A stretch of 39,904 nt of DNA from NCBI GenBank assembly GCA_018650165.1, contig JABIGM010000016.1:1-39904 (forward strand), in the 5' to 3' direction. This DNA comes from Methanobacteriota archaeon (GTDB lineage Archaea; Thermoplasmatota; Poseidoniia; Poseidoniales; Poseidoniaceae). Shown here in pieces: positions 26,215 through 39,345 of the stretch. Each line of letters starts with the position of its first letter. The stretch's first letter is position 1. The position numbers and the translations under genes are program-made. The notes below the pieces were generated by a model, which had not been told where the DNA came from, searched no databases, and was given only the letters and a program-made list of their open reading frames with translations.

Positions 26215-26406
26215 ATGGGAAATATTCGTCCAACATTTATCAAGCTGCGTGCAATTATTCTATGCGAAGAGCACGGTGAGAAATTCACAAATGATTTCGA
26301 TCATAACAAAAAAGTAGTTGACGAATTAACTGATGTTGATTCAAAGAAGTTACGAAACTGGATTGCTGGATACGTCACTAGGTACCGCCAGCGTCGAACC
26401 GACTGA
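26215..26406 (+). CDS. rps17e: 30S ribosomal protein S17e
   Basis: [36 protein letters not shown]. Confidence 0.97.
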
Positions 26407-26619: not shown

Positions 26620-27456
26620 ATGGGAGATAGACTCGATGTACCTCTGCCCAAATCAAATTACCAACTAGACATTGTCTTAGTGGGAATCACCCACCCTGGT
26701 AATTTGGGTGCGGTTTGCCGTGCAATGCTCAACCATGGTTTTACGCGACTATCCTTGGTCAACCCACAATGTGCTGTCGATGATGAAGAAGCACGTAACC
26801 GTGCTAAACATTCGGGTCATATCCTTCAAAATGCCAAGGTGTTTTCATCATTAAGTGATGCAATTTCAAACGCATCACTGGTTGTTGGTACAAGCGGGAA
26901 AAGAGAAATTGGTTCGAAAGTACTCAAACGTCATTTTGTTTTGCCTTGGGAATTTGCTGAACGCATAAGAACTCTGGAAGGTAATGTTGCTTTGGTATTT
27001 GGTGAAGAGGGCATGGGACTTTCAACTGACGAATTGGAGATGTGTGATATTTTGTTAACGCTTCCCACATGGGAGGGTTACCCGATAGCAAATCTTTCAC
27101 AGGCTGTTGGCCATTGTGTATACGAGTTACACCGAGACAGAATTCTTCATGGAACTTCCATAATTGGCGTTGAAAAGAAACGTGCGATGACACCAAAAAT
27201 CCGTCAGATTTTGAAGCAAGCAATAAATGAGTTTGCTCATTCCCTAGACAGCGAAAAAAAGGAATTAATTGGTGATGTTTACGACCGTGTGGTCATGAGA
27301 GGTCTTCCTATTGATTCTGAGGCCGAGAGGATGATTGGATCTCTGGTGCAAGCAACTACTGCATTACAAAAAGTCAATGGTGATGATGATTGGATGCGCA
27401 AAAGGAGAAAGCGAGTTACTCCTTCCAACAAGCCCACGACTTCGGAGTCTCCCTAA
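26620..27456 (+). CDS. trmJ: TrmJ/LasT-family SPOUT RNA methyltransferase
   Basis: IVLV.ITHPGNLGAVCRAM.NHG, VVGTSG, ALVFGEEGMGLSTDEL..CD, ANLSQAV. Confidence 0.93.
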   Translation: MGDRLDVPLPKSNYQLDIVLVGITHPGNLGAVCRAMLNHGFTRLSLVNPQCAVDDEEARNRAKHSGHILQNAKVFSSLSDAISNASLVVGTSGKREIGSKVLKRHFVLPWEFAERIRTLEGNVALVFGEEGMGLSTDELEMCDILLTLPTWEGYPIANLSQAVGHCVYELHRDRILHGTSIIGVEKKRAMTPKIRQILKQAINEFAHSLDSEKKELIGDVYDRVVMRGLPIDSEAERMIGSLVQATTALQKVNGDDDWMRKRRKRVTPSNKPTTSESP

Positions 27457-27865
27457 CATGCATTGCAGTTAGGCGCAATTTGTTACCATATGCTGTTTTT
27501 ATGTGCGGGGAAACTTGCTCAAAGGCCCACTTTGCCAGATTTTCAGCAGTTGGGATAAAGGGTACTTTTACGATTCTATGTCCTGGGGGGAGTAATTTGA
27601 ACATTTCAAGTAGGACTTCATCTTTATCATAAACCACAAAGGCATGGTCAATGATGTCATGGATATATTCATTTAGAATTTGAGAAACATCTGAGAAATC
27701 AATAAGCATACCTTGCTCTGAAACACCTTCGACATCTACGACATCACCTTCAATTTCAGCTTCAAAGCGGTAACGATGTCCATGCATATGTCTGCATTTA
27801 GATTTATGATTTGGAACACGGTGTCCAGTATCAGTTTCTACGTATCTTCGGATTATTGTAACCAT
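27416..27865 (-). CDS. queD: 6-carboxy-5,6,7,8-tetrahydropterin synthase
   Basis: GHRVPNHKSKCRHMHGHRY, GMLIDFSD, DHAF, PTAENLA, VRETPKSWA. Confidence 0.95.
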   Translation of the reverse strand: MVTIIRRYVETDTGHRVPNHKSKCRHMHGHRYRFEAEIEGDVVDVEGVSEQGMLIDFSDVSQILNEYIHDIIDHAFVVYDKDEVLLEMFKLLPPGHRIVKVPFIPTAENLAKWAFEQVSPHIKTAYGNKLRLTAMHVRETPKSWACWKE

Positions 27866-27866
27866 T

Positions 27867-28955
27867 TTATTCACCTTCAAATTCTAGACAGATTGAATTT
27901 ATACAGTATCTAGGCCCTGTACTTTCATGGAATAAGTGTCCTAAATGTGAATCACAATGAGAACACCGGACTTCGATTCTAGTCATTCCAAAACTAGTGT
28001 CCTTAAGTTGCAAAATTTCTGCATCTGGAATTTCGGAACTAAATGCTGGCCAGCCACAACCTGAATCAAATTTATCGCTTGAAGAAAATAGTTTTCTTCC
28101 ACAGTCTGCGCATTTGTATTCCCCACTCTCAAAATGTTTGTCATACTCGCCCGAATATGCTCGCTCAGTACCATTTTCTTTCATTACTTGGTAGCGTAAT
28201 TGTGACTTAAGTGCGGCATTCAGGACATGTTCCCATGAAGTGACATAAGCGATAGGGTCTTTTCTTCCTATTGCATGGAAAGCGAGGATCCGTTCAACAT
28301 CGGCACCACTCGTTCCACTAGAGTTCCCGTCACTGTCGGGGTTGTAAGAGGTAATTGTGTTTGCAAAAACAGTGTCGAAGTCGAGATTATTTTTTTGACA
28401 GGCTACCAATGCATCCCGTAGGATTGATTCCTTGTCTCCATCGATATAGGGTAGATGAAATGAAACTTTCTCACTATCCCAGTTTCCAATGGCAAAGGCA
28501 TCAGAAAGTGATTCATAAAATTCGGGACGGCAGTCTGGATATATTGCGTGATCTCCCGAATGTACCCCTAGTGCGATTACAACGTCAGTTTCTTCCCTTA
28601 GAGCTACAGATAGAGCATATCCGTATACTATTGAAGCGAATATTGCATTTCGGTTAGGAACAACGGTTGCTTTCATTTGCTCTTCTTCATAGTGTCCTTG
28701 CGGAACTTCAATGTCAGGACTCGTTAGTGCGGAATGAAATAAGCCCATTGCGGACGAAATATCCACAATATGGTGCTCAACCTCTATTCCATTTTTCATC
28801 AAATACTCAATATTTGACTTTGCCCTAGCCAATTCGATATTGTGTTTTTGGCCATACTCATATGAAATACAACTAACATTGTATCCGTCTGCAAGCAAAC
28901 GAATTAGCAAGCCTGTTGAATCCATTCCACCACTAAGTGCCATCACTGCCCGCAT
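27867..28955 (-). CDS. queC: 7-cyano-7-deazaguanine synthase fused to methionine-R-sulfoxide reductase (QueC-MsrB)
   Basis: aa1-250: LSGGMDS, YGQKH, VVPNRNAIF, GVHSGDHAIYPDCRPEF. aa253-362: GTERAYSGEY, CADC, KFDSGCGWPAF, RIEVRCSHCDSHLGHLF, RYCINS. Confidence 0.93.
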   Translation of the reverse strand: MRAVMALSGGMDSTGLLIRLLADGYNVSCISYEYGQKHNIELARAKSNIEYLMKNGIEVEHHIVDISSAMGLFHSALTSPDIEVPQGHYEEEQMKATVVPNRNAIFASIVYGYALSVALREETDVVIALGVHSGDHAIYPDCRPEFYESLSDAFAIGNWDSEKVSFHLPYIDGDKESILRDALVACQKNNLDFDTVFANTITSYNPDSDGNSSGTSGADVERILAFHAIGRKDPIAYVTSWEHVLNAALKSQLRYQVMKENGTERAYSGEYDKHFESGEYKCADCGRKLFSSSDKFDSGCGWPAFSSEIPDAEILQLKDTSFGMTRIEVRCSHCDSHLGHLFHESTGPRYCINSICLEFEGE

Positions 28956-29551
28956 TAGTCAACACCCATCCATTTGTGAGTTTGTAGTGAAAGTCGCCAT
29001 CCAGTAGTAGATTTAACCAAATTTTCAACCTGGGCAAAATTGCGTCCATTTTTCTCGATCGAATCACTTTCGATATAGCAGGGTTGGATAAAATGGTGCG
29101 TGAAACCCTTCTTCAAGTCATCATACATCGAGAGGTCTTGACCGCAATAAACAACTTTCAATTCGTCACCAATACGCTGCTTGATGGACACATTAGGGTA
29201 AACTTGGTCTTTAGGAGAAACGCAAACCCAGTCAATAATTTCAGGGACGGTCATTGTACCATTTGTTTCAATCGACAAGTGTATTCCGTGCTCCTTCAGA
29301 GCCTTACCAATGGTCGTCAAATCTTGAAGACATGGCTCACCACCGGTAAATATGACCCGATTACAATTAAATTTGAGAACTTGCGAAACGATGTCCACAA
29401 GTTCCATTTCTACAAATTTCAGAAAATCAGTATCGCACCATTCACACATAAGATTACAATTTCCAAATCTAATGAATACATGCGGTGTACCTGAATGAAA
29501 TGCTTCACCCTGTACGGAATGGAAGATTTCTACTATCGGGTATGATGCCAT
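28955..29551 (-). CDS. queE: 7-carboxy-7-deazaguanine synthase (radical SAM)
   Basis: EIFHSVQGEA, FIRFGNCNLMCEWCDT (CX3CX2C), TGGEP, ETNGT, VSPK, WRLSLQTHK. Confidence 0.95.
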   Translation of the reverse strand: MASYPIVEIFHSVQGEAFHSGTPHVFIRFGNCNLMCEWCDTDFLKFVEMELVDIVSQVLKFNCNRVIFTGGEPCLQDLTTIGKALKEHGIHLSIETNGTMTVPEIIDWVCVSPKDQVYPNVSIKQRIGDELKVVYCGQDLSMYDDLKKGFTHHFIQPCYIESDSIEKNGRNFAQVENLVKSTTGWRLSLQTHKWMGVD

Positions 29552-29560
29552 AATATCGCC

Positions 29561-30136
29561 TCAGTTTGATAGTGGCCGGCTTTGGATTAATTGCATCAAT
29601 TCAGTTCTAGCTTCACTGATTCCAAAGAATGCTCCACGCATTGCACTGGTAGTCATAACTGCATTTTGCTTTGAGATACCCCTACATTGCATACAACCAT
29701 GGGCTGCTTCAATTATTACAGCCGCTCCAAGTGGGTTTAGATGCTGTTCAAGGTCATCTGCAACACCTTTGGTAATTCTCTCTTGGTTTTGTAAACGCCT
29801 TGCATGTAATTCAACAATTCGCGCTAATTTGCTAATCCCAACAATTCTGTCTGTTGGAATGTATGCCACATGTGCCCTTCCACGGAACGGCTGCAAGTGA
29901 TGTTCACATGTCGAATGGAATTCAATATCGCGCAGTAGAACAATACCATCATAGCCTTCACCATTGAAAGTTGATGAAAGAACCTCCTTTGCATCCATAT
30001 TGTATCCAGCATAAATTTCATCAAAAGAATTTACGACTCTAGTAGGCGTATCTAGCAATCCTTCTCTTCCAGTAGAGTCCTCAATATACTCTAACAGCAC
30101 CTTAACGGCATTCATTGCCTCTTCTCTAGTCGTCAT
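29561..30136 (-). CDS. folE: GTP cyclohydrolase I (FolE, type IA)
   Basis: REGLLDTPTRV, STCEHHLQPF.G.AHVAYIP, GISKLARIV, RRLQNQERIT, HGCMQCRG. Confidence 0.96.
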   Translation of the reverse strand: MTTREEAMNAVKVLLEYIEDSTGREGLLDTPTRVVNSFDEIYAGYNMDAKEVLSSTFNGEGYDGIVLLRDIEFHSTCEHHLQPFRGRAHVAYIPTDRIVGISKLARIVELHARRLQNQERITKGVADDLEQHLNPLGAAVIIEAAHGCMQCRGISKQNAVMTTSAMRGAFFGISEARTELMQLIQSRPLSN

Positions 30137-30309
30137 TCTAATTCCCCCAGGCGCCCATGGCGAGCATCAATTACATCCAATTGATCAAGCATTTTCCTGC
30201 ATGCAGTGCGAATTGCATCTGCAACCGAAACAAATTTTCCATCATCGCCGACATGCGTACGCAGATCTTCTAGCAACTGGGCAGGCATATCCAAACTAAC
30301 CTTAGGCAT
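30133..30309 (-). CDS. Ribbon-helix-helix (CopG/Arc/MetJ-like) regulator
   Basis: MPKVSLDMPAQLLEDLR...FVSVADAIRTACRKML: alternating beta-strand followed by two helices; stop overlaps the folE start. Confidence 0.8.
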   Translation of the reverse strand: MPKVSLDMPAQLLEDLRTHVGDDGKFVSVADAIRTACRKMLDQLDVIDARHGRLGELE

Positions 30310-30380
30310 GTTTAGGCGTGCAGTAATTAGCATATGAATATTCGTATGCTATTACTAGAGTATTATCTAGGGAATACTGC

Positions 30381-39212: not shown

Positions 39213-39285
39213 GGGCTCGTGGTCTAGGGGTTATGACGTTGCCTTGACATGGCAAAGATCGCCAGTTCAATTCTGGCCGAGCCCA
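39213..39285 (+). tRNA. tRNA-Val(GAC), intronless, CCA not fully encoded
   Basis: GGGCTCG/CGAGCCC acceptor stem, D-arm GTCTAGGGGTTATGAC, anticodon arm TTGCC-TTGACAT-GGCAA, T-arm GCCAG-TTCAATT-CTGGC; TATA-like ATATATAT upstream. Confidence 0.97.
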
Positions 39286-39345
39286 CCTAGCATTTACAGC
39301 TATGATTTTAGATTATTACGCTTTTAATTAACGTTTAGCATTAAA

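Follow-up and report, generated by a model that had tools for sequence, protein, structure and literature searches.

In a genome of the marine archaeal order Poseidoniales (Marine Group II [MGII]), a single uninterrupted reading frame encodes a QueC domain joined to a methionine sulfoxide reductase B (MsrB) domain. The product is probably (with a likelihood of about 80%) a bifunctional QueC-MsrB with two chemically independent activities, which arose when neighboring genes that were translationally coupled merged in a compact genome. Few archaeal groups are as abundant in the surface ocean as MGII. QueC converts CDG to preQ0 in an ATP- and ammonia-dependent reaction that requires no redox partner (PMC13329287), and no redox link is known for this enzyme.

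Anatomy of the fused gene and its operon

We analyzed a 39,904-nt stretch of contig JABIGM010000016.1, referred to here as the window (Table 1). The initial annotation had read one open reading frame (ORF) in this window as a single in-frame fusion of QueC and MsrB, and the ORF listing, the translation, and Pfam all agree with that reading. In the product, designated P0001, Pfam places QueC at residues 2 to 228 (PF06508; E = 6.5e-41; 140.6 bits against a cut-off of 22) and SelR/MsrB at residues 252 to 360 (PF01641; E = 1.8e-42; 144.4 bits against a cut-off of 24.9); no Pfam match to an MsrA domain (PF01625) was found in this protein. P0001 provides both the sole QueC match and the sole SelR match over the cut-off in the 1.75-Mb genome, which is 80% complete. 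The QueC domain matches PDB entries 2PG3 and 3BL5 by sequence and by fold (TMt 0.67 to 0.70), while the MsrB half matches PDB MsrB chains at E = 1e-32 by sequence and, with Foldseek, 3CEZ, 6Q9V, 6SYM, and 3E0O at E = 2e-14 (TMt 0.70 to 0.79). PDB sequence and fold searches returned no solved chain containing both QueC and MsrB.

Table 1. Features of the queC::msrB locus and other genes of the window
Feature	Position	Strand	Evidence or remark
SpoU-family RNA methyltransferase gene	26620-27456	+
queD, 6-carboxytetrahydropterin synthase	27416..27880	-	Pfam PTPS, E 1.4e-27; TIGR03367
queC::msrB fusion ORF (P0001)	27867..28955	-	362 aa + TAA stop, uninterrupted (ORF listing, translation)
MsrB (SelR) domain, residues 251-362	27870..28205	-	PF01641; TIGR00357
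R349-Y-C-I-N-S354, catalytic Cys351	27894..27911	-	Invariant in 40/40 untruncated sequences
MsrB zinc motif 2, C331-x-x-C334	27954..27965	-	Invariant, 41/41
G299-C-G-W-P303, resolving (recycling) Cys300	28047..28061	-	C300, G301, W302, P303 invariant; G299 in 40/41
MsrB zinc motif 1, C282-x-x-C285	28101..28112	-	Invariant, 41/41
Junction helix, residues 241-259	28179..28235	-	AF2 pLDDT >90; type-A short junction
QueC domain, 7-cyano-7-deazaguanine synthase, PP-loop ATPase, residues 1-250	28206..28955	-	PF06508
Former zinc loop, residues 203-219	28299..28349	-	Zn ligands replaced by S203, S213, S216, D219
PP-loop S8-G-G-M-D-S13 (ATP pyrophosphatase motif SGGxDS)	28917..28934	-	Invariant in 52/52 Poseidoniia QueCs
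queE, radical-SAM 7-carboxy-7-deazaguanine synthase	28955..29551	-	TIGR04508, E 1e-39; Pfam
folE, GTP cyclohydrolase I	29561..30136	-	Pfam PF01227, E 3.4e-65
66-aa ribbon-helix-helix (RHH)-like ORF, operon head	30133..30333	-	NCBIfam CdrS, 24.6 bits, weak, below cut-off
tRNA-Val (GAC)	39213-39287	+

Transcription of the locus runs from the RHH-like ORF through folE, queE, and queC::msrB to queD, all on the same strand. The RHH-like ORF and the start of folE have 4 nt in common, and the queE stop and the queC start share 1 nt (TAATG). The true start of queD is likely the ATG at positions 27863 to 27865; relatives align from residue 5 or 6, and the queD ribosome-binding site (RBS), GGTGA, lies within the last MsrB codons, GAAGGTGAA (27870 to 27878). 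Almost all Poseidoniia loci for which the upstream flank was recovered (L005 to L056) have an RHH-like ORF of 57 to 66 aa located 5′ of folE, and this ORF may serve as a dedicated regulator of deazaguanine synthesis. Promoter and terminator searches between positions 26400 and 31800 gave no excess over shuffled sequences, using a bacterial consensus on an archaeal host. The SpoU-family gene is convergent with queD and overlaps its 3′ end, and this position next to queD is kept in most Poseidoniales loci examined. The tRNA-Val gene is the only tRNA gene of the window.

The MsrB half resembles stand-alone 2-Cys zinc MsrB proteins (E. coli 6SYM, B. subtilis 3E0O, and human MsrB3 6Q9V; 41 to 50% identity) in its two CxxC pairs, the resolving Cys of GCGWP, HxxH, and RYCINS. 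These zinc, resolving, and catalytic motifs, described as intact in the initial annotation, proved invariant among 41 fused and split Poseidoniales MsrB sequences (40 for RYCINS) that share approximately 50% identity overall, and H337 and H340 are likewise invariant (40 to 41 sequences). Unlike the stand-alone enzymes, the MsrB of P0001 has no start codon, RBS, or N-terminal leader of its own, and its first helix is held in common with QueC; relative to MsrB3, it also has a 3-residue deletion before RYCINS.

Precedents for an MsrB domain within a multidomain protein are the MsrA-MsrB fusions (3E0M, 5FA9, and 7E43) and the Trx-MsrA-MsrB protein PilB (1L1D and 3HCG). The partners in those proteins share one repair pathway, whereas the partner in P0001 is a nucleobase-biosynthesis enzyme, and MsrA, in contrast to its place in the MsrA-MsrB fusions, is here encoded by a separate gene on another contig (G000:C24:8544-8996). 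A TGT-family gene (tRNA-guanine transglycosylase) is present on contig 12 of the genome. With msrA separate and a TGT-family gene present, both pathways are thus otherwise ordinary.

Distribution, locus states, and junction types

A QueC-MsrB fusion, recognized as an uninterrupted match over both domains, is present in 88 of the 201 genomes that were sampled within the class. The fusion is confined to the two Poseidoniales families (88 of 156 genomes there) and was found in none of the 45 genomes sampled from the other two families of the class. The fusion is therefore clearly not restricted to one assembly, and the lack of internal stops in all 88 genomes argues against a misassembly or a stop at the junction; both possibilities had been raised when the gene was first described. 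Fusion proteins form more than 120 clusters at 90% identity, and the best 120 matches of a word-index protein search, drawn from NCBI, JGI, ENA, Logan, and Tara, carry both Pfam domains in every case (120/120). The existence of split versions in related genomes, some of them one stop codon short of fusion, might invite the view that a frameshift, chimera, or missed stop has united separate genes during assembly or gene calling. That explanation is effectively refuted: the 88 assemblies are independent and include single-amplified genomes (AH-273 isolates), contigs longer than 1 Mb (up to 1.78 Mb) bear the fusion, the protein clusters come from five data sources, and the junction sequence is conserved within each junction type.

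We compared 52 loci from 23 genera, placing the operon genes by tblastn. The gene order RHH-folE-queE-queC-[msrB]-queD is conserved across these loci, and the slot between queC and queD occurs in three states, with msrB separate, fused, or missing; every Poseidoniales msrB that was located occupies this slot. In the split state (e.g., L021, L024, L030, L031, and L035), the queC stop and the msrB start either share 4 nt (ATGA) or are separated by no more than 3 nt. At L030, L031, L053, and L054 (genera g4 and g7), queC and msrB share one frame, and the gap between them consists of one stop codon (TAG, TAA, or TGA) plus at most one codon before the msrB ATG; by sequence, a single point mutation would turn these pairs into read-through fusions. 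Split pairs have the same operon, gene order, Cys-free QueC (61 to 74% identity), and MsrB catalytic residues as the fusion. Unlike the fusion, each is a pair of ORFs whose stop and start overlap or abut; in most of them a GGAG(G) RBS lies within the queC tail, and their MsrB is only 46 to 54% identical to that of P0001. In the empty state (L017 to L020, L025, L032, and L033; genera g6, g9, g10, and g17), queD lies directly 3′ of queC. A genome-wide search with the SelR model found no SelR/MsrB in G097, G101, G004, G002, and G118, which represent four genera and are 88 to 98% complete, and this aerobic lineage of the sunlit ocean seems, from these sequences, to have lost MsrB outright on several occasions. 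One operon slot thus displays a whole series, from separate genes through pairs one stop away from fusion, a long junction, and a short junction to loss, and provides a clean natural example of neighboring-gene merger in compact genomes.

The fused proteins have two types of junction. Type A (362 to 368 aa), which includes P0001, has the motif "...ALK[AS]QLR[YFH]xVMKENGTER," and type B (380 to 384 aa) has approximately 7 more QueC-tail residues ("ExxHKD") and a partial MsrB leader ("xxYKExLSxLQY"). Compared with split pairs, type B is short by approximately 13 codons in the stop-start region, and type A is short by a further 18. In the AlphaFold2 (AF2) model of P0001 (47-row alignment; mean pLDDT, 85; pTM, 0.83), the C-terminal helix of QueC passes into the N-terminal helix of MsrB as one helix. 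The type-B representative P0122 (pLDDT, 90; pTM, 0.80) has a long helix at residues 242 to 264, a two-residue break, and then an MsrB helix at residues 267 to 275. Proteins of both junction types are predicted to be compact and confidently oriented, with ordered helical connectors compatible with a fixed orientation of the two domains, and a real interdomain interface could lie behind these compact models. Complex predictions for the split QueC and MsrB of L031, made with their own alignments and without controls, scored 0.49, 0.00, and 0.01.

Two further points of the initial annotation, a junction without a linker and an MsrB part without its own RBS or start, hold up in this comparison. The helix is continuous across the junction, and the QueC tail and MsrB leader seen in split genes are missing. 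Upstream of the conserved internal Met258, 16 of 17 type-A fusions lack any GGAG/GGTG-like motif within 25 nt, whereas 9 of 16 split msrB genes have GGAG(G), GAGG, or GGTGA 10 to 13 nt upstream of the start, embedded in queC tail codons.

Two states or junction types coexist within each of the genera g1, g7, g11, and g20 (L051 versus L005, L031 versus L050, L047 to L049 versus L045 and L046, and L035 versus L041 and L042). The QueC and MsrB gene trees intermix the two Poseidoniales families, and the QueC tree and the distribution of states do not match family or genus codes. Together, the mixed states within genera and the trees that mix families suggest that whole operon alleles have been exchanged laterally within the order or have long remained polymorphic there. 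In the MsrB tree, type A forms a clade with 99% support and type B is placed with two split genes. The interpretation that these trees and junction types reflect at least two independent fusions was withdrawn, because a tree that unites all fused forms in one clade is not rejected by AU tests, either for MsrB alone (p = 0.15) or for concatenated QueC and MsrB (p = 0.71), where the constrained tree scores better. One fusion with later shortening of the junction and two fusions are both possible; the 18-aa difference between type A and type B fits stepwise shortening.

From these loci we infer a deletion route to the merged gene. In an ancestral operon, RHH-folE-queE-queC-msrB-queD, the adjacent queC and msrB would have been translationally coupled, and deletion of the queC stop and the msrB start, along with the short tail and leader between them, would have joined the two. 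With the fusion, co-expression is fixed at 1:1, and a few dozen bases are saved in a compact genome.

A QueC domain without zinc cysteines and the question of coupling

Canonical QueC proteins (PF06508 Cluster 1) are defined by the motifs YxQxHxxE, VPxRN, and YPDC and an essential Tyr (Y189), which have in part been mutagenized, and by a hallmark zinc motif, C(x)8CxxCxxC (PMC13329287, a family survey from 2026). P0001 shares with the canonical enzymes (B. subtilis 3BL5, Pectobacterium 2PG3, and E. coli) the SGGxDS, YxQxHxxE, VPxRN, and YPDC motifs, the essential Tyr of the TCY motif, residues corresponding to L75 and K165 (L77 and K175), a Rossmann-like fold, and an operon with folE, queD, and queE. 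Within the 47 fusions compared, YGQKHxxE at residues 34 to 41 (here Y34-G-Q-K-H-N-I-E41), VPNRN at 99 to 103, YPDC at 139 to 142, and Y204, the counterpart of the essential E. coli Y189, are invariant, and when 106 relatives are considered as well, canonical motifs other than the Zn cysteines show no variation or almost none. Since the catalytic and motif residues of the two domains are invariant, both halves are, on the evidence of the alignments, under purifying selection.

P0001 differs from canonical QueC in the replacement of the Zn cysteines by S, S, S, and D, in falling below the trusted cut-off of TIGR00364, and in a C-terminal helix that extends into MsrB. The length of the zinc loop is unchanged (TSYNPDxxGRSSGxSGADxER here versus TCYNPDxxGRSCGKCGSCxER in CCCC relatives). 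The lack of a Zn site, which had been remarked on from the first reading, is confirmed by comparison with the 106 nearest 50%-cluster representatives: 84 have CCCC at the four ligand columns, where P0001 has S203, S213, S216, and D219, and 20 are Cys free. In all 52 Poseidoniia QueCs, whether fused, split, or MsrB free and including the sister family, TSYNPDxxGRSSGxSGADVERILAF is invariant. Because the Cys-free QueC is alike in fused, split, and MsrB-free loci, the loss of the cysteines predates the fusion and is independent of it. A QueC that is free of Zn cysteines and otherwise canonical is the more interesting biochemical point, and a whole archaeal class apparently lacks the zinc motif that the family survey (PMC13329287) takes as a hallmark.

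It had been suggested that MsrB completes or protects the Zn-less QueC. This idea is not supported, on two counts. The same Cys-free motif is present in stand-alone QueCs with up to 79% identity to P0001, the closest being that of genus g17, for which the two genomes searched (G101 and G118) are MsrB free. In addition, the five genomes without SelR anywhere encode a Cys-free stand-alone QueC, so MsrB is dispensable for such a QueC. Ten high-ranking representatives, seven of them Cys free, were compared with Pfam, and a SelR domain was found only in P0122.

Loss of the hallmark zinc motif (PMC13329287) could instead mean that the QueC-like half no longer makes preQ0, leaving MsrB attached to a degenerate or repurposed PP-loop domain. 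In keeping with that reading, P0001 scores 132.8 against a cut-off of 150.3 with TIGR00364 (NCBIfam QueC), with an alignment that ends at model position 189 of 201, whereas the MsrB model TIGR00357 passes (142.7 against 113.05), and NCBI records name the protein MsrB alone. We regard an inactive QueC half as very unlikely, however, because all other canonical catalytic motifs, including Y204, are invariant, the protein is the sole QueC of a genome with folE, queD, queE, and a TGT-family gene, the gene lies between queE and queD at every locus, and the replaced loop is itself strongly conserved. In the favored bifunctional reading, the N-terminal domain would convert CDG to preQ0 for tRNA archaeosine, and the C-terminal domain, an ordinary zinc 2-Cys MsrB, would reduce protein Met-R-sulfoxide and be recycled via Cys300 and a thioredoxin-type reductant.

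Among the closest QueC relatives (43 to 58% identity), P0124, P0125, P0141, P0146, and P0135 stand out by inserted or added elements. Several have inteins after approximately residue 140, some with LAGLIDADG, and one has an N-terminal HNH endonuclease domain. These may be viral or mobile-element QueCs.

The initial annotation also proposed that the fusion couples tRNA deazaguanine modification to oxidative-stress repair. This stands as far as co-expression is concerned and not beyond it, because msrB is already a separate gene between queC and queD in many Poseidoniales and because QueC chemistry needs no redox partner. The adjacency of msrB and queC is nevertheless conserved across both Poseidoniales families, which counts against a plain merger; as it has outlasted what random hitchhiking would lead one to expect, there is room for a selected link. 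We therefore weighed the possibility that MsrB is kept for its action on QueC, through cis repair of methionines, bracing of the loop, or preQ0 synthesis that responds to oxidative stress. The persistence of the adjacency through the order, the fused state of 88 of 156 sampled Poseidoniales genomes, the rigid helical junction predicted with high pTM in both junction types, and the invariance of QueC Met11 (in the PP-loop) and Met94 would all be in line with such a role. Against it, the Cys-free QueC stands alone in genomes without any MsrB, loss of the Zn ligands is class wide and extends to the 20 Cys-free sequences among the nearest representatives, SelR accompanies QueC in just one of the ten representatives scanned, and the reaction requires no reductant. 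Met11 and Met94 are, moreover, equally common in zinc-containing relatives without MsrB. On balance, functional coupling of this kind appears unlikely.

Met11 (SGGMDS) had been entertained as a dedicated target of cis repair and was dropped, as Met or Leu at this position is just as common in MsrB-free zinc-containing relatives. A more specific proposal, in which MsrB serves QueC in a sunlit, oxidizing habitat by bracing or cis repairing a zinc-independent QueC, with the preQ0 supply protected or gated by redox state, is, in our estimation, distinctly unlikely; if true, a biosynthetic enzyme would here carry its own dedicated "built-in repair" module, which would be of a new kind. For the preferred bifunctional QueC-MsrB, we infer that both domains are active and that mechanistic coupling between them is absent. 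The case advises caution, in that not every "Rosetta-stone" fusion amounts to functional coupling.

Names of the fusion in databases

The same fusion protein is named MsrB at NCBI and QueC at JGI. As TIGR00357 passes and TIGR00364 falls just short, the NCBI name is MsrB only. The fusion is thus already in databases, but only under partial names. Because the NCBI name omits QueC, automated pathway calls may miss QueC in MGII, and preQ0/archaeosine synthesis could be wrongly scored as incomplete (QueC missing) in reconstructions of this group. Literature searches on QueC with MsrB, and on MGII with methionine sulfoxide reductase or queuosine, turned up no description of a QueC-MsrB fusion, and MsrB and SelR go unmentioned in the QueC family paper (PMC13329287).

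Records of the fusion carry the names Candidatus Poseidoniaceae, Thalassarchaeaceae, Thalassarchaeum, Poseidonia, and "Marine Group II euryarchaeote." A further record, L063 (NZFX01000056.1; 9.5 kb), is labeled "Phycisphaerae bacterium MED703" and encodes a type-A fusion with 80% identity to P0001. This is most likely an MGII contig that was misbinned into a planctomycete metagenome-assembled genome.
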